A DNA stretch of 64,000 nucleotides from Emiliania huxleyi CCMP1516 (Eukaryota): assembly GCF_000372725.1 (NCBI RefSeq), contig NW_005201213.1:124001-188000 (forward strand). The letters run 5' to 3'. Positions 6,429-29,937 of this stretch are shown here, piece after piece. A program made the position numbers and the translations under genes. The notes under the pieces are model-generated. The model was given only the letters and a program-made list of their open reading frames with translations, was not told the origin of the DNA and did not search any database. Every line of letters starts with the position of its first letter. Position 1 is the stretch's first letter.

Positions 6429-9400
6429 ATGCCGCCGCCTCCATCGGCCGTGCCCAGCAGCTCGCACCGCCGTGGCACTGTGCACGAGTCCGACCCGGAC
6501 GTTGCCGGCGACGACGCCACCGCGGCCAAGGAGCCAGAAAGCTTCGTGTCGCTCTTCGAAGCCAACGTCGAGAAGCTTGGAGGGCAGAGGCTCTATACGT
6601 GGCACTCCTCGGCAGAGTGCACCGGCGATATCGTTTGGAGCTACACCGAGCTGGCGCAGCGAGGACGCGCCGTCTGCTGTGCGCTGCGGCGGCGGTGGGA
6701 GGTCGGCGACGGCGCCCGGGTCATGCTCATCTATCCGCCAGGCCTCGACTTCCTCGTCGCATTCTTCGGCTGCCAATACGCCGCCGTGATCGCCGTGCCC
6801 TACTACCCGCCCATCATCCCGGCGAGCCCGATGCCATCCGCTGGCGCCAAGAAGATGCTCGCCGACGGCTTGGCCAAGGTGGTTCGCATCTACAGCAGCT
6901 GCCACCCGGAGCTGCTGCTCTCCACGACAATGTGCGCCCTCGCCCGGCTGCCGCCGCGGCAGCTGCCGGCCGCGGGCAGCTCGGGGCTGGCCGGACCCAC
7001 CCGTGGCAGCCCACGCCCCACCCCTCCCTCGGTCCCGGCCCGCAAGAGAGTGGCGAGCGCCCGAAGCAGCAGCGTGGTTCAGCACACGCGCCGGCCGCGA
7101 GCGCTACCTGTGCCGCCGCGCAGGTACCTGCGGCTCAAGTGGCTCTCGAGCAAGCTCCTCGGCGGCGACTGCTCCTGGCCCTCCTCCTGGAACTGGCGCG
7201 CCGCCAGGGAGGGAGGGGAGGCCAAGCCACGCCAACCGAGACGCCAAAGACTAGCCGCCCGAACACTCGCCGCCCGAACACTCGCCGCCCGAACACTCGC
7301 CGCCCGAACACTCGCCGCCCGAACACTCGCCGCCCGAACACTCGCCGCCCGAACATTCGCCGCCCGACCTCAGGCGCTCCACCGACGACCTCTCGACCCG
7401 CCTCCCGCCAAAGGAGGCGCGTCCCTCCCTCGCTTGCCGCTCCACACGAGCCCGCCGCCACTCCGCCTCGGGGGGGGCCTTCACGACGGCGCCGCAAAAA
7501 AGAATTCGGTGCGGACGCCGCTCCTCGTTGCGCAGGCGGCATGGCTGGAGGGCTGGCTGCGGCAGCGGCGCGAGCCGGTGGCGGCGGCACACCACGGCCC
7601 GGGGGGTCGTGAGGCTCGGCACTGAGCAAGAGGGGTCGTCGTAGGCGTCGCCCGACGAGATCGCTTTTCTCCAATTCACGTCCGGGTCGACGGGCCACCC
7701 GAAGGGTTGGAGAGCGGTCTGCCGCCGACGGGGCAGGCGTGAGTTGCTCGACCGCCGGCGGTGACTCGTGGCTATAGGCGTGATGATCTCGACCAACAAC
7801 CTCGTCAACAATATCCTCGCCATGCGGCAGGTGCCGCCACAGCCCCGAACCACAGCCCCGCCGTCCCATCACGACCGCAGACACGTTGGCCGCTCCGCCG
7901 ACGCGGTGGCGAGGGTGGCGGCGGCGAGGGTGGCGGCGGGGAGGGTGGCACCGAGGGTGGAGGCGGTGAGGGCGGCGGCGGCGAGGGCGGCGGCGGCGAG
8001 TGTGGGGGTGGCGAGGGTGGGGGCGGCGTTGGCGGTGCCGGTTCCCCTGCCGCCGCTCCTCGGCCCACCCTGCAACGCTCCCCCCTCCGGCAGACGACGC
8101 GCCGCATCCACCCGGTCGAGTCCATCTGCATGGTGTCGTGGCTGCCGCAGTACCACGACATGGGCATCATCGGCGCAACACACATCGCGTGGCGAGACCG
8201 CTGCGGCAGGGTTGGCCTCGTCCGGAGCCTCTGAGGTTCCGCGGTAGGCGGCTGCCTCTTTGCGCCAATCATCGGCTTCAGCGCCGACCTCATGTCGCCC
8301 GCCACGTTCCTGCAGCACCCGGTCGCGTGGCTGCGCGCAATCTCAAAGCTACACAAGACGCACCAGGTCTCCTCCGCCGCCGCGTCCCACCGTTCCCGCC
8401 CGCCCCCGACGCGATTCCCCCGCCCGCCCAGGTCTTCACCGCGTCGCCAAACTTCGGGTATATCCTGTGCCTCCGCCGCATCAAAGAGGAGAAGCTGCAG
8501 GGCCTCCGCCTCAACCACTGGAAGTGCGCCCTAAACGGTCTTCGCCGCGTCAGCGACAGGAGGGCCGACGTCAGGCTGCTTAGAGGTGCGCGAGTTGTGG
8601 GAATTTAGGCGCAGAGCCGATCCGCGCCGAGACATTGCGCGAGTTTGGCGCGCGCTACGGCGCTTACGGCTTCGAGCCGACGGCGTGGGGCTGCTCGTAC
8701 GGGCTGGCCGAGAATTGCGTGTACGTCGCCGGCACGATGGAGCGGCCCGCCACGCTGCAGGTGCGGCGCGGGCTGTGGGCCGGAGACGTTGCGTGGCCTG
8801 CGGAGGAGGGCGACGGCGCGCTCTTCGAGTGCCCCGGCTGCTTCTTTCAGCCGGAGTGGCGGACGCACCAGTCGGTCCGGATCGTGCACCCGGACTCGCT
8901 GGAGGAGATGGCCGACGGGACCGTCGGAGAGATTTGGGTCGGCGGCCAATCGGTCGCGCGCGGCTACTGGGATTTGCCCGAGGTGTCGCGCCATACTTTT
9001 GGGGCGCAGCTGGCCGAGGCGGACGGCCCGGTGCACATGCGGTCCGGCGAGCTCCGAGCGCCCTCCCGCGGGGACGTTTGGGACGACACGGCCCTCAGGC
9101 CGGCGTATTCTCACCGCAGGCGACCTTGGCTTCGTGTGGGAGAGCCGGTTGTACGTCGTCGGCGAGAAGAAGAGAGCTGAGGCGGGCCGGGCCCCATTCG
9201 GGCCCCAAATCCGAGACGCCGAAGTGACTCGCTGTAGGTCGCATCAAGGACGTGCTCACCATGCGGGGCCGGACACTTCACGCGCACGACATCGAGGGGC
9301 ATGCCGAGCGCGGCTCGGGCGCTCTTCGACCGGGCTGTTGCGCCGCGTTCTCGATCCAGCCTCCGGAAGAGGAAGGAGAGGTGCTGGTGTTGATGGCCGA

Positions 9401-9731: not shown

Positions 9732-12700
9732 GTGAGTGTACCCCGCACGGCTCACGTCACCCTCGTGTTTGACCGTGTTGACCGGCGCTTCCCTCTCGGC
9801 ACTCCTCGGCAGATTCATAGACCCCCCCCCTCCCCCCCCCCCCTCTGCCCCCCCTGCCCCCCAGGTCGTCCTTCACTGGGACGTTTCCCTCGCCGGGCTC
9901 GAGGAGCCGCAGGAGCAAACCCGCGATGGGGAGTCGACGCCGCCGCAGGGCCACAACAGCTCGCGCTCGCCTTCGAACAGCAAAGAGGGGTGGTGGGTGC
10001 ATCGGCGCGACGCCCTCGAGCGGAGCCCGCCACGGTTCGAAGAGGCACCGTCGCCCCAAGGAACGGCCGGCGCACCCGTGGTGACTGAGAAGCCGATCTT
10101 GCCAGCGTCGCCAGAGACGCGGGCGGAGGCTGTGCTTCCGCCGCCGCCTCCGCCGGGGGGGCAGTCCCTGTACGCCAACCCCATCAGCTTGGAAGACCTG
10201 TACGCGCTCGCTGTCGAATGCCTCGGCTCGGACCTCTCGCCGGATGCACCGCTGATGGACGCCGGCTTCGACTCTGCAAACGCGCTCGAGCTCCAGGGCG
10301 AGCTCACCGAGCGCCTCGGCGTCTCGGACCTGCCGGAGACGCTCATGTTCGACTACCCCACCCTGCGCCAGATGGCGGCGCATTTCAACTCGTACACCAC
10401 GACGGCGCTGCCGGCGGAGGAGGCGTGGAACCAGGACACGCGAGGCCTCGCCGATGCGCCCGTGGCAACCGTCGGCGCGATGCGCGGCGCGCTTGCCGGC
10501 GGTGTCTCCACGATGGCGGCGCTGGAGTCCATGGTCGGAACCGCCGCCGACAGGATCACGGAGGTGCCGCTGGCCCGCTGGGACCTCGGCAAGCAGCACG
10601 CAGCCAGCGACCTGATCGGCTTGCGCGCCCGGCACGGCGGGTTCGTGGACAACGCGGAGCTCTTTGACAACGCCTTCTTCAGCATTTCGCCGGCCGAGGC
10701 CAGAGACATGGATCCCCAGCAGCGGCTGCTCCTCGAGCAGGGGTACGCGGCGCTGCACGGCGCCGGCTCGGTTCGCGATTCTCTGGTGGGTCGCGTGGCG
10801 GGTGTCTATTTGGGCATCGCCGGGAGCGACTTTCAGCACATGGTGACGCGCACACCTGTGCACCTACGCGGTGTGTACACTGCGACGGGCAGCAGCCACT
10901 CGGTCGCCGCAGGCCGCATCTCGTTTGTGCTCGGGATGCAGGGCCCGTGCGTGTCGTACGACACCGCGTGCTCGGCGGCGCTAGCGGCGAGCCACGGGGC
11001 GCTGCGCGCGCTTCAGCACAAGGAGTGCACTGAAGGGCTTGTCGTGGGCGTGAGCCTCATGCTCCTTCCAGATTGCCACCTGACTTTCGCCATGGCCGGC
11101 ATGCTCTCCGCCGGCGGCCACTGCCACACCTTCGACTCGCGCGCGGACGGGTACGCGCGTGGCGAGGCGTGCTGCGCAGTCGCGCTTCAGATGAGGGACG
11201 CCGACAGCTCAGCGGCCCTTCGTTTCCTCGGCAGCTGCGTGCGGCAGGACGGCAAGAGCGCGAGCCTGACGGCGCCCAACGGCCAGGCGCAGCAGGCCCT
11301 TCTAAAGGCCGCGCTCGCCGACGCATCCGTGCACACCGAGCAAGTAGCTTGCGTGGAGGCTCACGGCACGGGCACGGCATTGGGCGACCCGATCGAGACG
11401 CGGTCATTGGCGCACATAATCTCAAAACGCATGGCTGATGAGGCGCTCGCGTTGGGCAGCGTCAAGGCGAACGCCGGGCACACCGAGCCAGCTGCGGGCA
11501 TCACGGGTCTGCTGCGGCTTGCCCTGAGCTTGCAGGACGGCCTTGGTGCCCCGAATGGCCAGCTGCGCGCGATCAATCCGCACGTTGGCAATTCGCTAAA
11601 GGGAATCGCTTGCGCGCTTCCGACCCAGCTGTCGGCCGCGCCAATATGTGCGGCCCAGACGGGAAGCGATTGCGCCGGCGGCGTGAGCTCGTTTGGGTAC
11701 AGCGGCACGATCGTGCACGCGCTGCTCCAGGACGACGGCGTGGCGCGTGGCGCGGGCAGGCCGGCGGCGGCTTCGTCGCCGCATTACGTGCGCCGGTCTT
11801 TCGCGTGGTCGGAGCAGGCGCATCCGCTAGCGCAGGGGGTGGACGCGGCGGCGCCGAGCGGGCTCGTTCGCTACGCATCACCGGCAGCCGGCGCACTGCG
11901 TAGCTTGTCGGCGGACCACATCGTCCAGGGCCGCGTCGTCTTCCCTGGCGCCGGCTACCTCGAGATGGCGCGCGCGGCGAGCGACGCTGCGACCGACGCG
12001 GCGACCGACGCGGCGAGCAGCTTGCTCCGGCGCGTCTTCTTCCTGCAGCCCCTCTTGCTCGACGGCGACGTGGCACAGTTGCGCGTGGTGTGCGAGCTCA
12101 ACGCGGCGGAGGAGCGCTTCGAGGTGCGAAGCGAGCTCACCGAGGAAGGGGCAAGCACCGCCCATTGCGGCGGCTCGACGGGTGCGGCGCCGCCGGACGA
12201 CGAGCGGCGGCGCCCACAGCCGGCTGCGGTGCGCGGGAGCTGCGGGGCGGCGGTGAGCGCCGCGGACCTGTACTCCGCGTTCCGGGGGATGGGCCTCGAG
12301 TACGGCCCTGCGTACCGCACGCTCGCGGGCATGTGGGCGTCGCCAGCTTCGGGTGCTGCGGTGGGGCAGCTGCGGCGGCGCAGGCGGCTGCAGGGCACCT
12401 CCGTGCACCCAGCCGACCTGGACGGCGCGCTGCAGCTGACGGCGCTGCTCGCGACTGGCGCGGCGTCGGAGGTGCGGCTGCCGTTCTCGGTCGAGTCGGC
12501 AGCGCTGCGCGGCGCACGCGGCCACTTGTGCCCGGTGGCGGAGCGGCAGTCGGCGAGCACGACTCGCGTCGCTCTGGTGAGTCAGAGCCGACGCGGCGGA
12601 GGCGGCGCGCATTTGTCGGGCTTCGAGACGCGAGCCCTCAAGGCCGGCGCCGCCGCGCGGCCGGCTGCGCCGAAGAGGCACCTGTACGTGACGGCGTGGA

Positions 12701-15700
12701 CAGCGCGCGCGCTGTCTGCCGACGCCGGCCCCGAGGCGGCGGCGGCATCATCGCTGGTCCTCTCTGGAGCGGTGTCGAGCGTCGCGTCCGGCGCGGGCGC
12801 CACTCGTGCGACGGCGGCGGCGGCTGGCGGGCCTCGCTCTGTCGCGTTTGCCGCGGGGGTCGGCGGCGCCCGCGCCGAGCGCGATTCGCTCGCCGTGATG
12901 GCGGCCGCCTTTGACATCGTGCGGGCCCACACCGCCAAGGTCGCGCTGCCGGTGTGGCTGCTGACGAGCCGCGCGTTCGGCGCCCGGCCATCGGGCGGGT
13001 CTGGCGCGTCCGCGCACGCGGGCATGATGGGTTTGGCCCGCCAAGTGCGGTCCGAGGCGCCGACGTGCCGCCTGCCAGTCATTGACCTCGACGCCGCCGC
13101 GGCAGTGGCGGGCTCGGCGGCGGCCGCCGCGATGCTTGGGCTGGGGTACTCGGGCTTGCCTGAGCCCGAGGTCGCTTTCGACGCCGGCCGGCCGCGCGTG
13201 CCGCGGCTGGCCGAGGCGCCCGGCTCAATCAGCGGGCCTGTTCGGATGCACTTCGACGCGCGCGGCGCGGTGTCGAACCTCCGGATCGTGCCTCAGGCCG
13301 AGGAGAGCTCCCCGCCCGCGGACGGCGAGGTCGAGCTGCGCGTGCGAGCGGTCGGTCTCAACTTCCGCGACGTGCTCAACGTCCTCGGCGTGTACCCCGG
13401 CGACCCCGGTCCTCCCGGCAGCGACTGCGCTGCAGACGTGGCTCGCTGCGGCGGCGGCGCGCCGCACCTGCGCGTGGGCGACGCTGTGCTCGGCCATGGC
13501 CTGGCGGCGCTGGCATCGTTTGCGCGGAGCGACTCGCGGCTGATGGCGGCGATCGACGACTCGCTGACGGTCGAGCAGGCGTGCACCCTGCCGACGACGT
13601 GGTGCACGGTTCACATGTCGCTCCTCGCGTCGCGGCCTCGCGCGGGCCACCACGCGCTGCTGCAAGCGGGCGCCGGTGGCGTTGGCCTCGCAGCGGGCGA
13701 GTACACACATTGGGTCGGCACGCGCGCAAGCGTGACGGTCGGCCGGCCGTACAAGCATTGGTATTTGCATGGCATGGGTCTGCGCGGCGAGACGCTCAGC
13801 TCGCGCGACGGCGGCGCGTTCCTCGCCGGCGCGGCGGCGCTCGTCCGCGCGTCGCGGCTGCGCTTCGTGCTCAACAGCTTGTCCGCCGACTTCATCGCTG
13901 GCTCGTTTGCGCTGCTGGGCGAGGGCGGCTGCTTGTGCGAGATCGGCAAGCGCGCGGTGTGGAGTGCGGAGCGGCTGCGGAGCGCGTCGCTTGCGCGCTA
14001 CGTGGCGATCGCGCTCGACAGCACGATCGAGCAGACGCCGGTGTGGATGCGGGGCACACTCCAGCGGCTGTCTGCGCGCGCGGCGGCGCGCGTGCTGCAC
14101 GGGCTGCCACTGCAGAGCTTCGGGCTGGAGCGCGGCCTGCTCTCCGCGTTCCGCAGCCTGCAGGCCGGCACAAACACCGGCAAGGTGGTCATCCTCATCC
14201 CCGCCACCGCCACCGCGCCGCCGCGCGACACGCATCTGCTCTCTGGCGGCACCGGCGGGCTCGGCCTGCTGACGGGCCGGTGGCTGGCCGCGGGCGGGGC
14301 CTCCACGGTTGTGCTCGCGGCGCGCGGCGGCGCGGTGTCGGAGGCGGACGGCGCGCGGCTGCGGAAGGCGCGGCCGCAATGCTCCGTGTGCGTGGCGCGC
14401 GCCGACGCGGCGGAGCTGGCCGACATCCGGCGGCTGGTGAGCGGGGCGCGTTGTGGCGAGGCGGGTCGGCTCGCGGGCTTGTGGCACGCGGCCGGCGTCC
14501 TATCCGACGGGTTGCTGCGCGCCCAGACGGCGAGCACGCTCCGCCGCGTGTACGCTCCAAAGGTACACGGCGCCTGGGGCTTGCAGCTTGCGTGCGCCGC
14601 GGCGCCGCTCGATGCGTGCGTCCTCTTCTCGTCCATCGCGTCGCTGATCGGCGGCGGTGGGCAGTCCAACTACGGCGCGGCGAACGGTTGCCTCGACTCG
14701 CTTGGCGTGTGTCGGCGGCAGCGCGGCCAGGCGGCGTCGAGCGTGCAGTGGGGGCCGTGGGCGGACGTGGGCATGGCCGCGAGCAGCTCGGTCAACGCGC
14801 GGATCCAGGCGTCGGGCATGGGCCTGATCGGGCTGGAGCAGGGCGCGACGGCGTTCCGTGCAGCGCTGCTGCCGGGCGTGCCGGCCGTGATGAGCTTGGT
14901 CGTCCTTTCGTGGGGCAAGTTCCTCGGTCTGATGCCGACGGTGCCGCCGCTGCTGGAAGGGTACGCCTCCCGCAAGGCGGCGCCGGCGGCGACTGGCGGG
15001 GCGTCTGAGAGCCGCGTCGTGACGCTCGAGATGATCATGGAGTCGCTCGAGTCGACCATCGGCACGGGCGTGGATGCGGACGCGCCGCTGATGGAGGCTG
15101 GCCTCGACTCGCTTGGAGCGGTCGAGCTCGGCAACCAGCTGCAGCAGGCGTCGGGGCAGACGCTGCCGTCGACGCTCATCTTCGACTACCCGACGGCGCG
15201 GCAGCTCGCGGCGTACTTCGAGAGCTCCTCCAAGTCTGCCGGCGGCAGCGACGAGGCGGCCGGCGCGGCGACGTCCGCCGCCACGGCGCGGGCGGCTGCG
15301 ACGCCGTTCAGCGCGGGCAGCTCGAGCACGTCTGGCGTGGTGCGCGTGTGCGGGCTGAGCGCCATGATGCCAGGGCGGGTCGGCCTTGTGAGCGGACTGG
15401 CGCAGATGGCGTCGTGCGGCAGCGACCTGATCTCAGAGGTGCCGCTCGGGCGCTGGCGGGTCGGCGGGCCAGGCTTCCCGGATGGCGTGATCGGCCAGCG
15501 CGCCCGGTACGGCGGCTTCCTGAGCGACGCGGAGCTCTTCGACAACGCGTTCTTCAGCGTGTCGCCGTCCGAGGCGGGGGCGATGGACCCCCAGCAGCGG
15601 CTGCTCCTCGAGCGCTCGTTCGAGGCGCTGCACGGCGCGTCGTTCCAGAGGACCTCCCTGATGGACCTGGTCGCCGGCGTCTTCCTCGGCGTCGCGGCGA

Positions 15701-18700
15701 ACGACTTTGCGGAGGTCGTGCGGACGACGCCGTCGCTCGCGCGCAGCGTGTACGCTGCGACGGGCAGCAGCCACTCGGTCGCCTCCGGGCGCATCTCGTT
15801 TGTGCTCGGGATGCAGGGCCCGTGCGTGTCGTACGACACCGCGTGCTCGGCGGCGCTGGCGGCGAACCACGCGGCGCTGCGCGCGCTCCAGCACCGCGAG
15901 TGCGTCGCCGCGCTCTCGGTCGGTGTGAGCATGATGCTCCTCCCCGGCGTCGGCATCACCTTCGCCACCGCCGGCATGCTCTCCGCCGGCGGCCACTGCC
16001 ACACCTTCGACTCGCGCGCGGACGGGTACGTGCGTGGCGAGGCGTGCTGCGCCGCGACGCTGCGCGTCAGCAGCTTTGCCGCGCACGACACGCTGCGACT
16101 GGTCGGCAGCTGCGTGCGGCAGGACGGCAAGAGCGCGAGCCTGACGGCGCCCAACGGCCAGGCGCAGCGGGCGCTGCTGTGGGCCGCGCTCGCCGACGCC
16201 GCGATGCTGAGCGACCAGGTGGCTTGCGTGGAGGCTCACGGCACGGGCACGGCGCTGGGCGACCCGATCGAGGCGCGCTCGCTCGCCTCGCTGCACACGG
16301 GGCGGCAGGACGACGAGGCGCTCGCGGTGGGGAGCGTCAAGGCGAACGGCGGGCACGCCGAGCCAGCGGCGGGCATCACGGGTCTGCTGCGGCTGGCGGT
16401 CGGTGTGCGTGACCGGGTGGCGCCGCCGAACAGCCAGCTGCGCGCCGTCAACCCGCACGTGGTGGAGGCGTTCGACGGCATCTCGTGCACGCTTCCGACC
16501 CAGCTGTCGGCCGCGCCGGCGTGCTACGCGCAGGCGAGCGGGCTCTGCGCCGGCGGCGTGAGCTCGTTTGGGTACAGCGGCACGATCGTGCACGCGCTGC
16601 TCCAGGACGACGGCGTGGCGCGTGGCGCGGGCAGGCCGGCGGCGGCTTCGTCGCCGCATTACGTGCGCCGGTCTTTCGCGTGGTCGGAGCAGGCGCATCC
16701 GCTAGCGCAGGGGGTGGACGCGGCGGCGCCGAGCGGGCTCGTTCGCTACGCATCACCGGCAGCCGGCGCACTGCGTAGCTTGGTGGCGGACCACATCGTC
16801 CAGGGCCGCGTCGTCTTCCCTGGCGCCGGCTACCTCGAGATGGCGCGCGCGGCGAGCGACGCGGCGACCGACGCGGCGACCGACGCGGCGAGCAGCTTGC
16901 TGCGGCGCGTCTTCTTCCTGCAGCCCCTCTTGCTCGACGGCGACGTGGCACAGTTGCGCGTGGTGTGCGAGCTCAACGCGGCGGAGGAGCGCTTCGAGGT
17001 GCGAAGCGAGCTCACCGAGGAAGGGGCAAGCACCGCCCATTGCGGCGGCTCGACGGGTGCGGCGCCGCCGGACGACGAGCGGCGGCGCCCACAGCCGGCT
17101 GCGGTGCGCGGGAGCTGCGGGGCGGCGGTGAGCGCCGCGGACCTGTACTCCGCGTTCCGGGGGATGGGCCTCGAGTACGGCCCTGCGTACCGCACGCTCG
17201 CGGGCATGTGGGCGTCGCCAGCTTCGGGTGCTGCGGTGGGGCAGCTGCGGCGGCGCAGGCGGCTGCAGGGCACCTCCGTGCACCCAGCCGACCTGGACGG
17301 CGCGCTGCAGCTGACGGCGCTGCTCGCGACTGGCGCGGCGTCGGAGGTGCGGCTGCCGTTCTCGGTCGAGTCGGCAGCGCTGCGCGGCGCACGCGGCCAC
17401 TTGTTCCCGGTGGCGGAGCGGCAGTCGGCGAGCACGACTCGCGTCGCTCTGGTGAGTCAGAGCCGACGCGGCGGAGGCGGCGCGCATTTGTCGGGCTTCG
17501 AGACGCGAGCCCTCAAGGCCGGCGCCGCCGCGCGGCCGGCTGCGCCGAAGAGGCACCTGTACGTGACGGCGTGGACAGCGCGCGCGCTGTCTGCCGACGC
17601 CGGCCCCGAGGCGGCGGCGGCATCATCGCTGGTCCTCTCCGGAGCGGTGTCGAGCGTCGCGTCCGGCGCGGGCGCCACTCGTGCGACGGCGGCGGCGGCT
17701 GGCGGGCCTCGCTCTGTCGCGTTTGCCGCGGGGGTCGGCGGCGCCCGCGCCGAGCGCGATTCGCTCGCCGTGATGGCGGCCGCCTTTGACATCGTGCGGG
17801 CCCACACCGCCAAGGTCGCGCTGCCGGTGTGGCTGCTGACGAGCCGCGCGTTCGGCGCCCGGCCATCGGGCGGGTCTGGCGCGTCCGCGCACGCGGGCAT
17901 GATGGGTTTGGCCCGCCAAGTGCGGTCCGAGGCGCCGACGTGCCGCTTGCCAGTCATTGACCTCGACGCCGCCGCGGCAGTGGCGGGCTCGGCGGCGGCC
18001 GCCGCGATGCTTGGGCTGGGGTACTCGGGCTTGCCTGAGCCCGAGGTCGCTTTCGACGCCGGCCGGCCGCGCGTGCCGCGGCTGGCCGAGGCGCCCGGCT
18101 CAATCAGCGGGCCTGTTCGGATGCACTTCGACGCGCGCGGCGCGGTGTCGAACCTCCGGATCGTGCCTCAGGCCGAGGAGAGCTCCCCGCCTGCGGACGG
18201 CGAGGTCGAGCTGCGCGTGCGAGCGGTCGGTCTCAACTTCCGCGACGTGCTCAACGTCCTCGGCGTGTACCCCGGCGACCCCGGTCCTCCCGGCAGCGAC
18301 TGCGCTGCAGACGTGGCTCGCTGCGGCGGCGGCGCGCCGCACCTGCGCGTGGGCGACGCTGTGCTCGGCCATGGCCTGGCGGCGCTGGCATCGTTTGCGC
18401 GGAGCGACTCGCGGCTGATGGCGGCGATCGACGACTCGCTGACGGTCGAGCAGGCGTGCACCCTGCCGACGACGTGGTGCACGGTTCACATGTCGCTCCT
18501 CGCGTCGCGGCCTCGCGCGGGCCACCACGCGCTGCTGCAAGCGGGCGCCGGTGGCGTTGGCCTCGCAGCGGGCGAGTACACACATTGGGTCGGCACGCGC
18601 GCAAGCGTGACGGTCGGCCGGCCGTACAAGCATTGGTATTTGCATGGCATGGGTCTGCGCGGCGAGACGCTCAGCTCGCGCGACGGCGGCGCGTTCCTCG

Positions 18701-21700
18701 CCGGCGCGGCGGCGCTCGTCCGCGCGTCGCGGCTGCGCTTCGTGCTCAACAGCTTGTCCGCCGACTTCATCGCTGGCTCGTTTGCGCTGCTGGGCGAGGG
18801 CGGCTGCTTGTGCGAGATCGGCAAGCGCGCGGTGTGGAGTGCGGAGCGGCTGCGGAGCGCGTCGCTTGCGCGCTACGTGGCGATCGCGCTCGACAGCACG
18901 ATCGAGCAGACGCCGGTGTGGATGCGGGGCACACTCCAGCGGTTGTCTGCGCGCGCGGCGGCGCGCGTGCTGCACGGGCTGCCACTGCAGAGCTTCGGGC
19001 TGGAGCGCGGCCTGCTCTCCGCGTTCCGCAGCCTGCAGGCCGGCACAAACACCGGCAAGGTGGTCATCCTCATCCCCGCCACCGCCACCGCGCCGCCGCG
19101 CGACACGCATCTGCTCTCTGGCGGCACCGGCGGGCTCGGCCTGCTGACGGGCCGGTGGCTGGCCGCGGGCGGGGCCTCCACGGTTGTGCTCGCGGCGCGC
19201 GGCGGCGCGGTGTCGGAGGCGGACGGCGCGCGGCTGCGGAAGGCGCGGCCGCAATGCTCCGTGTGCGTGGCGCGCGCCGACGCGGCGGAGCTGGCCGACA
19301 TCCGGCGGCTGGTGAGCGGGGCGCGTTGTGGCGAGGCGGGTCGGCTCGCGGGCTTGTGGCACGCGGCCGGCGTCCTATCCGACGGGTTGCTGCGCGCCCA
19401 GACGGCGAGCACGCTCCGCCGCGTGTACGCTCCAAAGGTACACGGCGCCTGGGGCTTGCAGCTTGCGTGCGCCGCGGCGCCGCTCGATGCGTGCGTCCTC
19501 TTCTCGTCCATCGCGTCGCTGATCGGCGGCGGTGGGCAGTCCAACTACGGCGCGGCGAACGGTTGCCTCGACTCGCTTGGCGTGTGTCGGCGGCAGCGCG
19601 GCCAGGCGGCGTCGAGCGTGCAGTGGGGGCCGTGGGCGGACGTGGGCATGGCCGCGAGCAGCTCGGTCAACGCGCGGATCCAGGCGTCGGGCATGGGCCT
19701 GATCGGGCTGGAGCAGGGCGCGACGGCGTTCCGTGCAGCGCTGCTGCCGGGCGTGCCGGCCGTGATGAGCTTGGTCGTCCTTTCGTGGGGCAAGTTCCTC
19801 GGTCTGATGCCGACGGTGCCGCCGCTGCTGGAAGGGTACGCTTCCCGCAAGGCGGCGCCGGCGGCGACTGGCGGGGCGTCTGAGAGCCGCGTCGTGACGC
19901 TCGAGATGATCATGGAGTCGCTCGAGTCGACCATCGGCACGGGCGTGGATGCGGACGCGCCGCTGATGGAGGCTGGCCTCGACTCGCTTGGAGCGGTCGA
20001 GCTCGGCAACCAGCTGCAGCAGGCGTCGGGGCAGACGCTGCCGTCGACGCTCATCTTCGACTACCCGACGGCGCGGCAGCTCGCGGCGTACTTCGAGAGC
20101 TCCTCCAAGTCTGCCGGCGGCAGCGACGAGGCGGCCGGCGCGGCGACGTCCGCCGCCACGGCGCGGGCGGCTGCGACGCCGTTCAGCGCGGGCAGCTCGA
20201 GCACGTCTGGCGTGGTGCGCGTGTGCGGGCTGAGCGCCATGATGCCAGGGCGGGTCGGCCTTGTGAGCGGACTGGCGCAGATGGCGTCGTGCGGCAGCGA
20301 CCTGATCTCAGAGGTGCCGCTCGGGCGCTGGCGGGTCGGCGGGCCAGGCTTCCCGGATGGCGTGATCGGCCAGCGCGCCCGGTACGGCGGCTTCCTGAGC
20401 GACGCGGAGCTCTTCGACAACGCGTTCTTCAGCGTGTCGCCGTCCGAGGCGGGGGCGATGGACCCCCAGCAGCGGCTGCTCCTCGAGCGCTCGTTCGAGG
20501 CGCTGCACGGCGCGTCGTTCCAGAGGACCTCCCTGATGGACCTGGTCGCCGGCGTCTTCCTCGGCGTCGCGGCGAACGACTTTGCGGAGGTCGTGCGGAC
20601 GACGCCGTCGCTCGCGCGCAGCGTGTACGCTGCGACGGGCAGCAGCCACTCGGTCGCCTCCGGGCGCATCTCGTTTGTGCTCGGGATGCAGGGCCCGTGC
20701 GTGTCGTACGACACCGCGTGCTCGGCGGCGCTGGCGGCGAACCACGCGGCGCTGCGCGCGCTCCAGCACCGCGAGTGCGTCGCCGCGCTCTCGGTCGGTG
20801 TGAGCATGATGCTCCTCCCCGGCGTCGGCATCACCTTCGCCACCGCCGGCATGCTCTCCGCCGGCGGCCACTGCCACACCTTCGACTCGCGCGCGGACGG
20901 GTACGTGCGTGGCGAGGCGTGCTGCGCCGCGACGCTGCGCGTCAGCAGCTTTGCCGCGCACGACACGCTGCGACTGGTCGGCAGCTGCGTGCGGCAGGAC
21001 GGCAAGAGCGCGAGCCTGACGGCGCCCAACGGCCAGGCGCAGCGGGCGCTGCTGTGGGCCGCGCTCGCCGACGCCGCGATGCTGAGCGACCAGGTGGCTT
21101 GCGTGGAGGCTCACGGCACGGGCACGGCGCTGGGCGACCCGATCGAGGCGCGCTCGCTCGCCTCGCTGCACACGGGGCGGCAGGACGACGAGGCGCTCGC
21201 GGTGGGGAGCGTCAAGGCGAACGGCGGGCACGCCGAGCCAGCGGCGGGCATCACGGGTCTGTTGCGGCTGGCGGTCGGTGTGCGTGACCGGGTGGCGCCG
21301 CCGAACAGCCAGCTGCGCGCCGTCAACCCGCACGTGGTGGAGGCGTTCGACGGCATCTCGTGCACGCTTCCGACCCAGCTGTCGGCCGCGCCGGCGTGCT
21401 ACGCGCAGGCGAGCGGGCTCTGCGCCGGCGGCGTGAGCTCGTTTGGGTACAGCGGCACGATCGTGCACGCGCTGCTCCAGGACGACGGCGTGGCGCGTGG
21501 CGCGGGCAGGCCGGCGGCGGCTTCGTCGCCGCATTACGTGCGCCGGTCTTTCGCGTGGTCGGAGCAGGCGCATCCGCTAGCGCAGGGGGTGGACGCGGCG
21601 GCGCCGAGCGGGCTCGTTCGCTACGCATCACCGGCAGCCGGCGCACTGCGTAGCTTGGTGGCGGACCACATCGTCCAGGGCCGCGTCGTCTTCCCTGGCG

Positions 21701-24700
21701 CCGGCTACCTCGAGATGGCGCGCGCGGCGAGCGACGCGGCGACCGACGCGGCGACCGACGCGGCGACCGACGCGGCGAGCAGCTTGCTGCGGCGCGTCTT
21801 CTTCCTGCAGCCCCTCTTGCTCGACGGTGACTTGAGTGCAACGGCGGTCAGCGTGGACATCTCCATGGCCGACGAGCGGTTCGACGTCAACACCGAGGAC
21901 ATCGAGACGGGCAGTAAGACGTCGCACTGTGCGGGCGGTGCGTCCATCCTCCAGAAGGCGGTGCGCAGCTTGTCGCACGCGGGCTTGCGCGCGTCGTGCG
22001 CGCAGCCAGTCGACGCTGCCGTCATCTACGCGGGCTTCCGCTCGGTCGGCCTCGAGTACGGCCCCGAGTACCGCACGCTCACTTCGGCGCGCGTGTCGCG
22101 CGATGCGGGCGTCGCTGTTGGCCAGTTGCGCCGGCGCTCGCGCAAGGAGGGCACGAGTGTCCATCCGGCCGACCTCGACGGCTCGCTGCACCTGACTGCC
22201 TTGCTGGCCGAGGCAACTGCGGCGGGCGAGATCCGGCTCCCCTTCTCGGTCGGCGAAGCGGCGCTGACTGACGTTAGCGGCTCTTCGTGGCCGGTGGCGG
22301 AGCGGCAGGGCGCCAATATGACGGGCGTGTGGGTTGGGGCCAAGGACGCCAAGTCGGCCAACTCGCCTGGTGCACGCCTGAGCAACTTTGAGACGCGCGT
22401 GCTCAAGGCGGCGCCTCTGGCAACTCCGGCACGCAAGTCGACCCACCTGTACGTCACGTCGTGGCAGACTACGACGGTGCCGGCCGCTGAGGACGCCAAG
22501 GCAGCGCTCGTGATATGCGCCTCGGCTCTGGCCGGCGCTACCTCGAGTTTTTTTAGCGCTGCGGGAACGGCGCCGCCAACGTCGATCGGCTCAGTGGTGT
22601 ACGCCGTCGGCCTCTCTGCTGGCGCCAAGGCCTCCCACTCGCTCGCCGGCCTGATGGCCGCGTTTGATGTTGCGCGCACGCACACCATCACGCGTTCGAC
22701 GCCTCCAATGTGGATGGTCTCGGCTGGCGCCCTTGCCGCCCGCTCGAATGGCACCAGCGTCTCGAGCCACGCGGGCCTGATGGGCCTGACCCGCCAGGCG
22801 CGTTCCGAGGCGCCGCAGTCGTGCTTGCCAGTCATCGACTTGGACGTGCTCAGCCCGGGCGTGACCGAGCTGGCGGCGGTGTCGAAGCTGGCCGGCAAGC
22901 TCGGCCTTGGCTACAACGGCACGCCCGAGCCCGAGATCGCCTTTGACGGCACGAGCCAGCGCGTGCCGCGCCTGACCGAGGCGGCCGGCTCGCTGGGCGG
23001 ACCGATCAAGCTCTACTTCGACGCCCGCGGCGCCGTCAGCAACCTGCGGGTGGTCTCGCAAGAGGAGGACGACTCAGATTCGGTCCACGGTGAGGTCAAG
23101 CTGCACGTTGGCGCGGTCGGCCTCAACTTCCGCGACGTACTCAACGTGCTCGGCGTGTACCCCGGCGACCCGGGCCCTCCCGGCGGTGATTGCGCAGTTC
23201 ACGTTGCTGCCGTGGGCACCGGGTTCTCGCACCTCAAGGTTGGCGACGCAGCGCTTGGGCACGGCCTCGCTGCTCTTGCTTCTCTGTCTAAGTCTGACGC
23301 GCGCCTGATGGCGGCCATCACCGACTCGCTCTCGTTCGAGCAGGCGTGCACCCTGCCGACGACGTGGTGCACGGTTCACATGTCGCTGCTCGCGGCCCGG
23401 CCGGCGGCTGGCCACGACGTGCTTCTGCACGCTGGCGCTGGTGGTGTCGGCCTGACCTCGCAAGAGTACTGCCACTTCATCGGCAATTGCGCGATGGCCA
23501 ACGTCGGCCGGCCGTACAAGCACTTCTATCTGCACAAGATGGGCCTCGCCGGCCGCACGCTCAGCTCGCGCGACGGCAGCGCCTTTGCGCTCGGCGCGTC
23601 GAAGCTGCTTCGCTCCGGCCGGCTGCGCTTCTCGCTCAACAGCCTGTCGGCGGACTTCATCGCGTGCACCTTCGCGCTGTTGCAGCAGGACGGCCGTTTG
23701 TGCGAGATTGGTAAGCGCGCTGTGTGGAGCTACGAGCGGCACGAGGTGGCGTGCTCCAACAACTTCACGATGATCGCGCTCGACTCGACGATCGACCAGG
23801 CGCCGTGGTGGATGTGCGGTACGCTCAGGACTCTGTCCGCACGCGCGGATGCCTTTGTGCTCCACGGCTTGCCCATGGAGCTCTTCGACCTCGAGAGGAA
23901 CGTCTTGGCCGCCTTCCGCACGCTGCAGAGCGGCACCAACACCGGCAAGGTGGTGGTGCGCATCCCGAAAACGGCCCCGACGCCGCCACGCGGGGCCCAC
24001 CTGCTCTCTGGCGGCACGGGCGGCCTCGGCCTGGTCACGAGCAAGTGGCTCGGCGAGAGCGGCGCTTCTTCGGTGGTGCTCGCGGCCCGCGGCGGCAAGG
24101 TCGCCCCTGCGGACAGCGAGACGTTCAAGAGGATCGCCAAGTGCAGCTTCAGCGTAGTCAAGTGCGACGCGGCCGAGCTGGCGGACACCGCTCGCATGGT
24201 GGGCGCCATTCTTGCCAAGGACAGCACGCTGGCGGGCGTGTGGCACGCGGCGGGCGTGCTGTCGGACGGGCTGTTGCGCGGCCAGAACGCTTCGACAATC
24301 AAGCGCGTCTTCGCGCCCAAGGTGGCTGGCGCGTGGGCGCTGCAGCAGGCGGCCGCCATGGCGCCGCTCGACACGTATGTGCTCTTCTCGTCTATCGCCG
24401 CGCTGATTGGTGGCGGCGGCCAGTCCAACTACGCTGCGGCCAATGGCATGCTCGACGCACTCGGCGCTTGCCGGCGCGTGCGCGCCATGAACGCGACGTC
24501 AGTGGAGTGGGGCCCGTGGGCGGCCATCGGCATGGCAGCGGACGAGTCAATCAATGCTCGCATCCAAGCCAGCGGCATCGGGCTCATCAGCCTCGAGCAG
24601 GGAACACTTGCCTTTCAGGCGACGCTGCAGCCTGCCGTGTCTGGCGTGATGAGCCTGGTGGTGCTCACTTGGAGCAAGTTCCTGAGCCTGCTCCCAGAGG

Positions 24701-27700
24701 TGCCACCGCTGATGGCCAACTACGCAAGCCGCAAGCGCGCAGTGGCGACTGGCAGTGGGAAGGTGAAAGAGGTCACGCTCGAGATGATCCAGGAGACGCT
24801 CAAGTCGACGACTGGCAGCGAGGTCGACCCCGACGCGCCGCTGATGGAGGCTGGCCTCGACTCGCTTGGAGCGGTCGAGCTCGGCAACCAGCTGCAGCAG
24901 GCGTCGGGGCAGACGCTGCCGTCGACGCTCATCTTCGACTACCCGACGGCGCGGCAGCTCGCGGCGTACTTCGAGAGCTCCTCCAAGTCTGCCGGCGGCA
25001 GCGACGAGGCGGCCGGCGCGGCGACGTCCGCCGCCACGGCGCGGGCGGCTGCGACGCCGTTCAGCGCGGGCAGCTCGAGCACGTCTGGCGTGGTGCGCGT
25101 GTGCGGGCTGAGCGCCATGATGCCAGGGCGGGTCGGCCTTGTGAGCGGACTGGCGCAGATGGCGTCGTGCGGCAGCGACCTGATCTCAGAGGTGCCGCTC
25201 GGGCGCTGGCGGGTCGGCGGGCCAGGCTTCCCGGATGGCGTGATCGGCCAGCGCGCCCGGTACGGCGGCTTCCTGAGCGACGCGGAGCTCTTCGACAACG
25301 CGTTCTTCAGCGTGTCGCCGTCCGAGGCGGGGGCGATGGACCCCCAGCAGCGGCTGCTCCTCGAGCGCTCGTTCGAGGCGCTGCACGGCGCGTCGTTCCA
25401 GAGGACCTCCCTGATGGACCTGGTCGCCGGCGTCTTCCTCGGCGTCGCGGCGAACGACTTTGCGGAGGTCGTGCGGACGACGCCGTCGCTCGCGCGCAGC
25501 GTGTACGCTGCGACGGGCAGCAGCCACTCGGTCGCCTCCGGGCGCATCTCGTTTGTGCTCGGGATGCAGGGCCCGTGCGTGTCGTACGACACCGCGTGCT
25601 CGGCGGCGCTGGCGGCGAACCACGCGGCGCTGCGCGCGCTCCAGCACCGCGAGTGCGTCGCCGCGCTCTCGGTCGGTGTGAGCATGATGCTCCTCCCCGG
25701 CGTCGGCATCACCTTCGCCACCGCTGGCATGCTCTCCGCCGGCGGCCACTGCCACACCTTCGACTCGCGCGCGGACGGGTACGTGCGTGGCGAGGCGTGC
25801 TGCGCCGCGACGCTGCGCGTCAGCAGCTTTGCCGCGCACGACACGCTGCGAGTGGTCGGCAGCTGCGTGCGGCAGGACGGCAAGAGCGCGAGCCTGACGG
25901 CGCCAAACGGCCAGGCGCAGCGGGCGCTGCTGTGGGCCGCGCTCGCCGACGCCGCGATGCTGAGCGACCAGGTGGCTTGCGTGGAGGCTCACGGCACGGG
26001 CACGGCGCTGGGCGACCCGATCGAGGCGCGCTCGCTCGCCTCGCTGCTCACGGGACGCCGGAATAACGAGGCGCTCGCGGTGGGGAGCGTCAAGGCGAAC
26101 GGCGGGCACGCCGAGCCAGCGGCGGGCATCACGGGTCTGCTGCGGCTGGCGGTCGGTGTGCGTGACCGGGTGGCGCCGCCGAACAGCCAGCTGCGCGCCG
26201 TCAACCCGCACGTGGTGGAGGCGTTCGACGGCATCTCGTGCACGCTTCCGACCCAGCTGTCGGCCGCGCCGGCGTGCTACGCGCAGGCGAGCGGGCTCTG
26301 CGGCGGCGGCGTGAGCTCGTTTGGGTACAGCGGCACGATCGTGCACGCGCTGCTCCAGGACGACGGAGATGGCGGCCAGGCGCCGGTTGACAGCGTTCCA
26401 GTGCGCTTTAACCGTCGGCGGTTCCCTTGGCCGCGGCCAGCCATTGTCGCCGCTGCAGACGAAGCGGAGCTCCTGGGCTTTGGATTCTCCTGGGTCGATT
26501 CGGACGTCCCTGAGGCGGGCGGAAATGGCGGCTTGGATTGGCTCTTGATCGGCGAGCGGAAGCAGGTTGGCCCCGCCTCGCGCGTCTACCACGAGCAGCC
26601 GTCGAAGGTCACAGCGCTCAGCGAAGTCGGCGGCAAGTCCGTCAGGAACGTCGTTCTGCTTGCGGAGACGCATGATGCCGCTGCTCCGTCCATGCTAGGG
26701 ATGTCCACGCTGCTGGCAGTCACGAGGCAGCTCATCCAGATGAAGCCCCCTCCCAGGCTGTTGTGCCTCTGCCGAGGGACGCAGCACCCGCGACCGTTGG
26801 AGCTAGCCGAGCCGATGGCTGCAGCTTCAGCCGGCGGCGTCTGGGGGTTCCTGAGGAGCGTGGCCCTCGAGCAACCCGCTGCTGATTGGCTCATTCGTGA
26901 CGTGCGCTCCGAGCCATCAGCCACAGAGGTTGCCCGGATGCTGCGTGCAGCGGCGGCCTTTGGGGAGGACGGAGGCGTGCCGAGGGAGCTGGCCCAGAGC
27001 TCCAGCGGCACGTGGCATGCGCCGAGACTTGTGCGCACTGGTGCCATCCCTTCCAGTGCGGACAGCGTCAGCGGCGCCGGGGTCAACATCATCACCGGGG
27101 GACTCGGCGGCCTGGGGCTTCGGGCCGCAAAGGCGCTGGCGGGCGATCCATCCTCGCACCTTGTGCTCTCGTCGCGGAGCGGGCGCATCACGCGCGCGGG
27201 GCAGGGCCTCGGTGCGCAGCTGCGCTCGCTTGAAGCCTCGAAGAGCAACTTGCGCATCCGTGCGTGCGACATCGCGGCGCCGGAGGACGCCGTCGCCCTC
27301 CTTCGCGAGAGCCACTCGCTGCGGCGTCCGCGACTCGCGACCCGCGTGATCCACGCGGCAGGCGTCCTGGCGGACGGCCTGGTGCGGAAGCTGACTCCCA
27401 GCGACCTTGGCGCTGTCTTTGCCGCCAAGGCTCACGGAGCAGCTGCCATCCATTCCGCCTCGACCACTCTCAACTTTTCCGCGTTTGTGGCATTCTCCTC
27501 CGTCGCCTCGGCCTACGGTAACATTGGCCAGGCCAACTACGCCGGTGCCAACTCGTACCTCGACGTGCTTGTGACCCTGCGGCGTGCGTGCGGGCTACGT
27601 GGATGCAGCCTGCAGCTGCCCCCAGTCGGGGGCGCGGGAATGGGTGAGGCGCTCGCCTCCAAGTTCAGCGGAATGGCCGAGATCTGGACACTGCCGCTCG

Positions 27701-29937
27701 AGCGGTACGCCGCGTGGCTTGCCCAGTCCCTCTCCCTTTGCCCCTCGGCCGTGGCGACCGCCCTCAGCAGTGATGCCCTCGCCCAGTTTCCCGTCTCGGC
27801 CCGGGCACTGCTCGTTGACGATGCCCTCGGACGCGGCGCGGCGTCCGCGATGCCGCCCCCTTCCGGTCCCGCTCGTGCGGCGGACCTGAGCACGGAGCAG
27901 ATCCAGTCGACCCTCCTGCGGGAGGTCACTGCGCTCACGAGCATCGACGCCCTCACTGTGGACACGCCTCTGATGGAGGCGGGCGTCGACTCGATGGCGG
28001 CGCTCGAGCTGCGCAACCGCGTGGAGGAGGTGATGGGCGTCCGCCTGAAGAACGAGGACCTGCTCGCAGACGCCGACGAGCTCACGGTCGCACAGCTCAC
28101 GAGCGCGATCGAGCGGCGCGCCGCCGGCGCCGGCGGTGGCGCTGCGGGCGAGAGCGGCCCATCAAGTGGCGGGTCGGTGAGTCTGAGCTTCATGAACACG
28201 TCGGTCGTGGCGGGCACGGCCGCGCCGATCGCCGAGCGGCTCCGCCGCCCGATCCTCTTTGTGTTGAGCAGCCCGCGCTCGGGCTCGTCGCTGCTGCAGC
28301 TCTGTCTGCAGGCCAACCCGGCCCTCTACGCCGGCCAGGAGCTGTACCTGCTCATGTTCGACTCGATGGGCGAGCGCGCCGCCGTGCCCGAGATGCGCTT
28401 CGTCGAGGAGGGCCTCGTCAAGACCATCATGGAGCTCAGCGCCAGCTCGGCGGCCGCCGCGCGCGCGCGCATCGCGCGCTTCGGCGCCGACTGCCCGACG
28501 TGGCGCGTCTACCAGGCGCTGCAGCGAATGAGCGGCCCGCGCATGCTCGTCGACAAGACGCCCGCCAACGCGAGCCACGTCTCCTTCATGCGGCGCGCGC
28601 GGGAGACCTTCGAGCACGCGCGCTACATCCACCTGATCCGCCACCCGTACGCCTGCATCTCGTCCGGCCTCCAGATGTTCCGCGACTTCCTCGACGTGTC
28701 CGAGACCACGTGGGCTATGGTGGAGCAGTCGTGGGTCGACACGAACCGCGCGTGCGACGAGTTCATGGCGGAGCTGCGCGCGGAGCAGCCCGAGCAGCGA
28801 GGGCAGTCGATGGTGCTCCGCTACGAGGACTTTTTGCGCGACCCGGCGGGCGCGACGCGCGGCGTCTGCGAGGCGCTTCTGGGCGTGGAGTGGGCGGAGG
28901 GGATGGCCAACCCGTACGAGACGAGCGCGATTCAGAGCTTCGAGGCGGCCGAGTCCAAGTCGACGACCGACCAGAAGCTGCTCAAGCGCAAGGCGATCGA
29001 GCCGCGCCAGGCAGAGAAGTGGCGCGAGGTGCAGCTGCCGCAGCCGCTGCTCGAGACCACAAAGGCGCTCGCGGCGGGGCACGGGTACGAGCTCCTGCCG
29101 GACCTCACGCCCGAGCTCTCGTGGATCGCCCAGCCCGAGGGCACGCCAGCCGGCGCGCCGACCGTCTGCATCCACGACTTCACCGGCCTCTTGTGGGGCT
29201 TCCGCGCGCTCGCGCCGCTGCTGTCAACCTCGGGCTGCCTCGGCATCCATGCGTCGACGCGGCTTCTCGACGGGTGCGCCTGCATGCAAGAGCTCGCGGC
29301 GCAGTACGTGCAGCTGCTGCCAAAGGGCCTGTGGATGGGCGGGGCGCCGGTGCGGCTGATTGGCTACTCGCTCGGCTGCCGCGTCGCCTACTGGATGGCG
29401 TGCCTCCTCGAGGCGGAGGGGCGGCCGGTCGAGCTCGTGCTGCTCGACGGGCCGGCGGCCGGCGACGACGGCTACCCGCCGCGGATGGGCGGGTACGCGT
29501 CGGAGGTGGCCGAAGAGATCCGGCTCAACATGGGCCTCGCGCCGCCGCCGGACGGGCGCCCCGCCTCGCTCGGGCCGCAGGGCGGCGGCGCCGGCTCGGC
29601 GGCGCAGGCCATGCAGTTTGCGGTGATGAAGCGCTCCGGCTCGTTCCGGATGCTCTTCACCCTGCTCGAGGATGCGGGCGAAGACGCCGCCGCCGCCGCG
29701 GTGCGGCTCATCGAGCTGCCCGACCGCGTGGCGGAGCCGCTCGGCCCGGTGCGAGCGCCGGTCCTCTTTGTGCACACGGAGCAGATCCGCGAGAACGGCA
29801 CCGCCGGCGTGCTGCTTGAGCGCGTGCCACACGCGACGGCCGTCAAGGTTCCGGGCGACCACTTCTCCTTCATCACAAAGAGCGCGACGCAGATTGCGGA
29901 GGCGGTCGCGGGGTGGCCCTCGCCGTCCCCAGCGTAG
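6429..29937 (+). CDS. Giant AT-less modular type I PKS: FAAL-ACP-[KS-DH-ER-KR-ACP]x3-KS-KR-ACP-ST-TE; about 13 introns in 6429-9864, then one ~20 kb exon (9865-29937)
   Basis: Four KS (DTACS, HGTGT, GH), three DH (HIVQGRVVFP), three ER (GLNFRD, AGAGGVG), four KR (GGxGGLG, YxxAN), five ACP (GxDS), ST (SSPRSGSSLL) and TE (GYSLG); no AT GHSxG; FAAL exons splice in frame into the long exon via intron 9732-9864. Confidence 0.93.
7254..7366 (+). repeat. 15-bp tandem minisatellite (GCCGCCCGAACACTC) about 7.5 copies, intronic
   Basis: Visible directly, inside GC-AG intron 7196-7373. Confidence 0.9.
10189..10386 (+). other. Loading ACP
   Basis: PLMDAGFDSANALEL...LPETLMFDYPT. Confidence 0.88.
10460..15220 (+). 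other. PKS module 1: KS-DH-ER-KR-ACP
   Basis: DTACS 10960, DH His 11917, HPADLD 12406, ER ~13330-14200, KR ~14230-14800, ACP GLDS ~15100. Confidence 0.88.
11671..21827 (+). repeat. 4875-bp near-perfect tandem duplication inside the PKS; a third ACP-KS copy lies at ~24832-26364
   Basis: Identical text at 11671 and 16546; shadow ORFs repeat at offsets of 4875/4878. Confidence 0.95.
15340..20095 (+). other. PKS module 2: KS-DH-ER-KR-ACP
   Basis: Same motifs; DH to ACP nearly identical to module 1 at a +4875 bp offset. Confidence 0.88.
20215..24970 (+). other. PKS module 3: KS-DH-ER-KR-ACP with diverged reductive loop
   Basis: KS essentially identical to KS2; sequence diverges after ~21827 but keeps HPADLD, LHAGAGGVG, GGTGGLG, YAAAN and GLDS. 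Confidence 0.88.
25093..28110 (+). other. PKS module 4: KS-KR-ACP (no DH or ER)
   Basis: KS is followed directly by the KR structural subdomain and IITGGLGGLG / HAAGVLADG / YAGAN; ACP GVDS at 27982. Confidence 0.87.
28250..29100 (+). other. Sulfotransferase domain of CurM/OLS type
   Basis: ILFVLSSPRSGSSLL (5'-PSB loop), ELYLL, EGLVKT, LVDKTP, IHLIRHPY, RYEDF, KWREVQLPQPL...GYEL. Confidence 0.88.
29150..29920 (+). other. C-terminal thioesterase
   Basis: VCIHDFTG, ELAAQYV, LIGYSLG (Ser), LVLLDG (Asp), PGDHFS (His). Confidence 0.85.

Follow-up and report, generated by a model that had tools for sequence, protein, structure and literature searches.

The stretch of Emiliania huxleyi DNA that was analyzed (64,000 nt, hereafter the window) contains a real and expressed polyketide synthase (PKS) gene of an already catalogued layout, which is a variant of olefin synthase (Ols)-like logic in a haptophyte trans-AT PKS and whose release chemistry is predicted. 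In the reading that we hold slightly better than even, the encoded enzyme is an AT-less modular PKS which would load a free fatty acid, extend it reductively, sulfate it and release it as a terminal alkene.

Domain Order and Catalytic Motifs

The domain string of the gene is FAAL-ACP-(KS-DH-ER-KR-ACP)x3-KS-KR-ACP-ST-TE. The Pfam scan counted four KS, three DH, ER-type stretches (ADH_N/ADH_zinc_N_2), four KR, five ACP, one Sulfotransfer_3 (E 3e-27) and one Thioesterase (PF00975) domain. Together with a motif search of all modules, it confirms the domain order and the intact catalytic motifs that a first-pass annotation had described. In detail, DTACS/HGTGT/GHxE are present in all four KS, HxxxGxxxxP and HPADLDG in 3/3 DH, GAGGVG in 3/3 ER, GGxGGLG with the catalytic Tyr in each of the four KR and GxDS in all five ACP, and the TE carries GYSLG. 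In ER1 and ER2, Gln replaces the His preceding GAGGVG. A loss of function was considered for this reason but rejected, as their NADPH motif is complete and the relative P0007 likewise has Gln. For an AT, neither a family match was found in the Pfam scan of the long frame nor a GHSxG motif. The architecture is that of a multi-module AT-less KS-DH-ER-KR-ACP line, as in haptophyte trans-AT type I PKSs. The missing AT, the tandem repetition of modules 1 and 2 and a TE of non-CurM type are additions to the content of the earlier annotation.

The loading ACP (GFDS) lies at 10183..10389 on the + strand, as do all other domains of the gene. Module 1 (KS1-DH-ER-KR-ACP, 10465..15225), whose KS1 is 67% identical to KS2-4, precedes module 2 (KS2-DH-ER-KR-ACP, 15340..20100), with a body 99.8% identical to that of module 1, and module 3 (KS3-DH-ER-KR-ACP, 20215..24969), with a body 65% identical to that of module 2. 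The terminal module (KS4-KR-ACP, 25093..28065) is without DH or ER and is followed by the ST (28249..29115) and the TE (29125..29937).

The FAAL loading domain occupies exons 1-13 (6429..9731, +), as delimited by the open-frame model, PF00501 matches on three exons, the PDB matches of exon 10 and RNA contigs. For exon 10, 14 of the 15 PDB matches are FAAL-type ligases (FadD32, Ols FAAL, FadD28 and FadD23) and the alignment spans the FAAL insertion; PDB entries with no more specific title than "Polyketide synthase" or "Acyl-CoA synthase" are taken as FAALs here. The top PDB match of exon 1 is the Ols FAAL, and the best solved relatives overall are FadD32 and the Ols FAAL. Adenylating-domain fragments upstream of the long frame also align to FAAL-bearing proteins. 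The proposed FAAL-type loading domain with its ACP is thus upheld by the matches of exons 1 and 10 to solved FAALs.

Gene Structure and Transcription

Among the open reading frames of the 64,000-nt window, a single stop-free frame covers 9736-29934 (6,733 aa). The complete model consists of 14 exons (6429-29937, +), with RNA support for part of the boundaries and exon 4 picked by frame, and it yields a product of 7,348 aa free of internal stops; its introns are eight GT-AG and five GC-AG. The FAAL exons are located on the + strand at 6429-6931, 7124-7195, 7374-7416, 7536-7577, 7645-7705, 7778-7830 and 8094-8172 (exons 1-7) and at 8248-8366, 8432-8537, 8609-9046, 9120-9161, 9238-9518 and 9597-9731 (exons 8-13). 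Intron 2 of the FAAL contains a 15-bp tandem repeat (window 7244-7367). Three assembly gaps (N runs) occur in the window (38295-38990, 46823-47597 and 56673-56803), none of them within the PKS gene.

The FAAL is connected to the PKS exon by a GT-AG intron of phase 0 (9732..9864, +). This intron is seen as a joint in the contigs of two of the four RNA runs compared over 6000-16545 (X2 and X3), with short sides of 27 (X2) and 21 (X3) letters, which lie below the 31-letter bar for bridging. The preceding intron is joined in X1-X3, and RNA contigs bridge or stop at several FAAL exon boundaries. The depth of the X3 contigs is level from the FAAL (1,067-1,186) into ACP-KS1 (1,227-1,238), with 1,186 versus 1,227-1,234 at the junction itself. 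Because of the joint in X2 and X3 and the level X3 depth, FAAL and PKS are likely to share one spliced transcript. The first-pass annotation had placed the junction at this intron and all domains in a single spliced gene, and both the open 14-exon model and the RNA joints agree with it. Module 3 sequence is partly present in 15 of the 19 runs listed, six of which are recorded as RNA; run X16 (raw reads, organism C) has coverage at low-complexity spots only.

The Module Repeat and Its Copy Number

Modules 1 and 2 form a tandem repeat with a period of 4,875 bp (11671..21766, +), with 11 nucleotide differences (over 11671-16891) and two amino-acid changes, and KS2, KS3 and KS4 are 98.6-100% identical to one another. 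The RNA depth exceeds what the assembled repeat predicts. In X3, depths of 1,067-1,238 were read for the single-copy parts; the repeated body stood at 4,575-5,446, or 3.7-4.4 times the depth of KS1, and the shared KS at about 9,350, or about 7.6 times that depth. The letters at 12765 are split 985 versus 3,998. A depth model built on the 5′ half of the gene, using the RNA contig depth of this one run, which comes from organism B and differs in strain or label, predicted 2,476-3,739 for the body with two copies, which is below the observation at all three slopes tried. With three copies at the slope measured on the FAAL, it predicted 5,192 (body) and 9,115 (shared KS). Four copies without a slope also fitted the X3 body, and five fitted it less well than three or four. 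Contig depth is no direct copy number, and 3′ bias or a paralog could also raise it. The ratios are smaller in other runs, about 2-3-fold in X2 and about 1-3-fold, at low depth, in X1. A joint of 16545 to 11671 found in three runs was rejected as proof of the tandem repeat; module 3 begins with the same sequence.

A paralog also has to be considered. The relative P0002 is 98-100% identical to KS4 of the window and then diverges to 32-82% per 100 aa (compared with 25093-29937). Furthermore, P0001, P0225 and P0060 are mixed forms of two ST-TE ends, which switch at short identical tracts. By sequence comparison, the P0002-type end and the mixed forms suggest a paralog subject to gene conversion, or else assembly chimeras. 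A second near-identical assembly was not found in a search for relatives of 3,703-11,783 aa, where the ST-TE had 24 matches (the best at 59%) and the module body two.

The layout with three modules may be an artefact of assembly, in which alleles or paralogs were stacked or collapsed in the repeat. We consider this quite possible, though somewhat short of even; it would be compatible with the alkene reading. Repeat copies that differ at 11 bases only, the X3 body and KS depths above the two-copy prediction, the uneven letters at 12765, and the existence of P0002 with the chimeras of two ends all fit such an artefact. However, the excess was seen in the RNA contigs of a single run that differs in strain or label, and 3′ bias or a paralog could account for it; the X2 and X1 ratios are lower. 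In addition, the published EhuPKS8 of E. huxleyi has three reducing modules in the part of the record available, though the same assembly, or one related to it, is its probable source, and TISO_06537 of Tisochrysis lutea is tabulated with four KS, three ER and a sulfotransferase. Module duplication and deletion are described for Prymnesium PKSs in the available text of Kuhl 2024 (10.1101/2024.03.27.587007), so real variation in module number is plausible too. Three fully reducing modules, as first annotated, are present in the assembled sequence with intact motifs; given the near-perfect repeat and the depth excess, their number is uncertain. Three is a minimum estimate and the repeat may be under-assembled.

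The Sulfotransferase

The only strong solved relatives of the ST are the Ols and CurM sulfotransferases (4GOX, E 2e-46; 4GBM, E 6e-46), which also take ranks 1 and 2 in the fold search. Its assignment to the CurM/Ols type, proposed earlier, is supported by E values of about 1e-46. The equivalents of their Arg, Glu and Lys are kept and the His is replaced by Tyr.

The comparison set contained 243 proteins, 211 of them with a full ST. These were classed by the domain that follows, using score cut-offs of our own, into 27 haptophyte-type (our label for records without an organism name, about 10 of the 27 being near-duplicates), 44 Ols-type, 46 NRPS-type, 65 other and 29 with no such domain. With the window included, the haptophyte type has 28 rows. 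Four residues are invariant in 28/28 of them, namely the Arg of the PAPS loop, a Glu, a Lys and the Arg of the RHP motif. At the position of the active-site His, which we take to be His62 of CurM, the same rows have Tyr (17, including the window), Phe (9), Trp (1) or Thr (1) and in no case His (0/28), as opposed to His in 43 of the 44 Ols-type rows. The residue numbering and roles in the CurM ST were reportedly set out by McCarthy in 2012. In a quick tree of 50 ST rows (18 haptophyte-type plus 16 and 16, with duplicates and other classes left out), the 18 haptophyte-type sequences form one clade with an SH-aLRT of 100. A related ST is paired with an NRPS-type TE in 46 bacterial proteins of the set.

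The Thioesterase

The TE has a Ser-Asp-His triad (Ser 29368, Asp 29446 and His 29860), an HDFT motif and an Arg at 29260, and ends with the stop at 29935-29937. Judged by Pfam, profile search and a pairwise test, it is of the FAS/NRPS type and not of the CurM type. The first matches of a profile built from 10 such TEs are TEs of FAS and NRPS, and its 54 matches at E<=1 do not include the CurM TE. An Ols-type TE gives no phmmer alignment to the TE of the window at E<=100, whereas an NRPS-type TE aligns at 5e-11. The structural model (pLDDT 83.9) has NRPS and FAS TEs as its top fold matches (Z 20.1-19.9, rmsd 2.7-4.8, 190-212 aligned residues), with alpha/beta-hydrolases within a few Z units and no clear gap to other hydrolases. 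The CurM TE (3QIT) is at fold rank 31, with an E-value close to that of many other TEs. It is not among the 50 matches listed in a wide fold search, which excludes nothing, as that library consists of representatives.

Within the haptophyte type, the triad is invariant (28/28 rows). HDFT stands in place of HPxG, with the Asp in 28/28 rows versus 0/46 of the NRPS type, a Cys follows the nucleophile elbow in 26/28 and the Arg is found in 27/28, counts which are partly circular as the class is defined by the same profile. This clade-specific Arg could speculatively serve sulfate binding.

Comparison with Known Systems

A gene of the same layout is already in print as EhuPKS8 of E. huxleyi (JGI 632082; Shelest 2015, PMC4661987, supplement 2; probably also O'Neill 2020, PMC7073580, Fig. 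4e). In the parts of these sources that were available, its domain string equals that of the window gene, save for one extra DH listed after the ligase in Shelest 2015; the ST is called a P-loop NTPase in Shelest 2015 and named a sulfotransferase in O'Neill 2020, and the available text of neither assigns an alkene to it. Judged by layout and not by sequence, the window gene is very likely EhuPKS8 or its ortholog. Near-identical termini are also found in MMETSP transcripts (P0234 and P0225). The earlier statement that no eukaryotic enzyme of this layout has been characterized holds for the literature searched, even though the layout itself had been published.

The gene shares with Ols and CurM the FAAL-ACP loading, a last module with KR only, and a homologous ST followed by a TE. 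On the other hand, Ols (FAAL-ACP-KS-AT-KR-ACP-ST-TE) has a single KS-AT-KR-ACP module with an AT in cis, in contrast to the four KS, the missing AT and the extra reducing modules found here. The TE of FAS/NRPS type, the replaced ST His and the position of the ST in a separate clade are further differences from Ols and CurM. By these sequence features the gene is Ols-like in layout and logic and is not a member of the Ols family, because it has no AT, a TE of FAS/NRPS type and an ST which groups in a separate clade without the His. Hence its first description as an Ols expanded by three modules is not supported.

A precedent exists in Prymnesium parvum, where module M56 of PKZILLA-2 ends in ST-TE; in the available part of the preprint (10.1101/2024.01.29.577497), the authors match it to a terminal alkene precursor. 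Like the window gene, PKZILLA-2 is a haptophyte trans-AT PKS ending in ST-TE with a proposed alkene release, and PKZILLA-1 starts with an ANL ligase-ACP, comparable to the FAAL-ACP of the window. PKZILLA-2 makes a giant polyether over 56 modules, whereas the window gene would make a plain hydrocarbon.

In T. lutea, TISO_06537, TISO_16495 and TISO_37254 combine KS/KR/DH/ER sets with a sulfotransferase and a TE, and TISO_16495 also has a FAAL; as compared by the domain counts tabulated in PMC8779623 (Table S6), they contain four, six and one KS, respectively. In the portion of Perez Gallego 2026 (PMC13508280) at hand, PKS7 is proposed for alkenones and PKS8 shows small expression changes. The same source lists FUN_010244, a fragment with KS-KR-ACP-ST whose log2 changes from one temperature to another are 1.5 and 4.3; it is a candidate for the window gene or its paralog. 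Because both the layout and the idea of a haptophyte ST-TE release are in print, the surprise is limited.

Related Termini and Flanking Regions

A first metagenome scan found no positives among 36 stretches, and a second one gave 43 loci from 132 stretches; in the 20 loci examined of these 43, neither FAAL nor ER was linked to the ST (0/20). The same ST and HDFT-type TE are found in a clade of marine eukaryote-like AT-less PKS termini with varied assembly lines (P0203-P0206, P0214, P0063 and L001-L012), some of which include HMG-CoA synthase/enoyl-CoA hydratase or flavin domains. Two tandem sulfotransferase domains each are present in L022 (89-1882) and L041 (2343-3872).

No obvious pathway genes were found among the 41 flanking frames scanned, a scan that may miss intron-rich genes; the matches were LRR, ankyrin, CPP1-like and weak repeat-driven ones only. 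The leucine-rich-repeat and ankyrin-repeat frames are at 57690-59885 (+), 59457-61668 (-) and 50529-51722 (+), and the CPP1-like frame (PF11833, E 1e-11) is at 1862-2782 (+). A frame of 1,269 aa at 30794-34600 (-), with no Pfam match, contains several tandem repeats, one of them of 192 bp, is rich in Cys over one stretch and turns hydrophobic close to its C-terminus; from these features it looks like a cell-surface protein.

Predicted Mechanism and Alternative Products

According to its family, the FAAL would adenylate a free fatty acid and load it onto ACP0. Each KS-DH-ER-KR-ACP module would then add a saturated C2 unit, with malonyl presumably supplied by an AT in trans, and the last module, where DH and ER are absent, would stop at the 3-hydroxyacyl-ACP. 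By homology to CurM and Ols, the ST would sulfate the beta-hydroxyl with PAPS. By analogy, the TE may hydrolyze the chain with loss of CO2 and sulfate, giving an odd-numbered terminal alkene. The steps from loading to sulfation follow from domain homology and the Ols mechanism (PMC3903477; PMC11730487), and the available text of PMC3903477 describes, for Ols and CurM, a KR module lacking DH immediately ahead of ACP-ST-TE. Such a module recurs in most relatives extending far enough (P0002-P0004, P0006 and P0204-P0206). A strict need for a beta-hydroxyl is countered by P0203, P0005 and P0063, where the same ST-TE follows DH-KR or KR-less modules.

By analogy, the Ols/CurM layout, the ST relatives, the FAAL, the PKZILLA-2 precedent, the features of the TE clade and transcription make alkene release likely; weighed against the non-CurM TE, the lost ST His and the ST-TEs behind DH-KR or KR-less modules, the alkene keeps a little over half of our confidence. 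The Ols-like alkene logic of the first-pass annotation therefore remains the best reading for layout and ST homology, with a TE type and an ST His that differ.

The main rival is a sulfated very-long-chain fatty acid, which we consider unlikely but the strongest of the other products: the ST would sulfate the beta-hydroxyl and an ordinary TE would hydrolyze the chain or transfer it to a lipid with no decarboxylation. The elimination in CurM requires a special TE, and here both the sequence and the top fold matches place the TE with FAS/NRPS hydrolases, a combination with a related ST that the 46 bacterial proteins with NRPS-type TEs also have. Nevertheless, at conserved positions of the active-site loop the haptophyte-type TEs depart from the NRPS type, and a possible parallel, the ST-TE of PKZILLA-2, is tied, in the text available, to a product ending in vinyl chloride and not in a sulfate or acid. 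If the ST has lost its action on the beta-hydroxyl or works at another site, the line would yield a long-chain 3-hydroxy acid or a different building block of lipids. This is improbable, although the His of the CurM/Ols STs is replaced across the clade and some relatives have no KR before the ST, since the invariance of the PAPS-loop Arg, Glu, Lys and RHP Arg argues for a working sulfotransferase.

Predicted Chain Length and a Possible C31 Diene

If the product is the alkene, k KS domains would convert a Cn acid to C(n+2k-1), that is, n+7 as assembled and n+9 to n+13 if the repeat has three to five copies. As assembled, C14-C18 acids would give C21-C25 alkenes, which to our knowledge are not major products of E. 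huxleyi and which count against the alkene reading. Haptophyte 1-alkenes of C31/C33 were reportedly described by Rieley in 1998, and haptophyte alkene structures are said to be given by Nakamura (2015). The C(n+7) arithmetic put forward earlier is correct for four KS (C24:1 n-9 would give C31 1,22-diene). With an uncertain module number, both it and the proposed C24:1 to C31 conversion are weak; it is unsafe because the repeat depth in one run agrees better with three to four copies than with two, and because the KS is shared by a paralog. A link to the C31 1,22-diene, which needs a C24:1 starter or more modules, is doubtful.

Just as doubtful is a broader proposal, in which the C29-C33 cis-alkenes of haptophytes that produce alkenones would be made by the gene and its paralog, with the tandem 4.9-kb module copies as a molecular ruler and an independently recruited decarboxylating TE of FAS/NRPS type. 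If it were true, seven KS would turn oleic acid into 1,22-hentriacontadiene and no C24 starter would be needed. The C37/C38 trans-trienes were rejected as products; the modules are too few and none is ER-less. In cluster 3 of T. lutea, a FAAL protein with seven KS (TISO_37260) is listed with the one-KS ST protein TISO_37254 (PMC8779623, Table S6). On the tabulated counts, eight KS would turn 18:1 n-9 into C33 1,24-diene, with listed ER counts that are too low and unverified gene models.

Neither the window gene nor any FAAL-multimodule-ST-TE PKS was found assigned to haptophyte alkenes in the literature searched, a body outside which lie organic geochemistry and most subscription journals. Neither haptophyte alkene structures nor CurM residues were found in the available text of PMC7327777, PMC8911584, PMC8286971, PMC11638913, PMC11350588 and PMC5797101.

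Possible Significance for Haptophyte Alkene Biosynthesis

The gene is an expressed candidate for alkene synthesis, with a small part, ACP-ST-TE, of about 690 aa. Bloom-forming haptophytes have long-chain alkenes that are known as biomarkers. No enzyme is assigned to these alkenes in the literature searched, and the alkenone PKS is likewise only a proposal in the available part of PMC13508280. The candidate also raises the question of whether decarboxylative elimination is within reach of a TE of non-CurM type, which concerns an entire clade of PKS termini of the marine eukaryote type. Should strains differ in the repeat number, the structure of the gene would be linked to the chain length of the alkenes.
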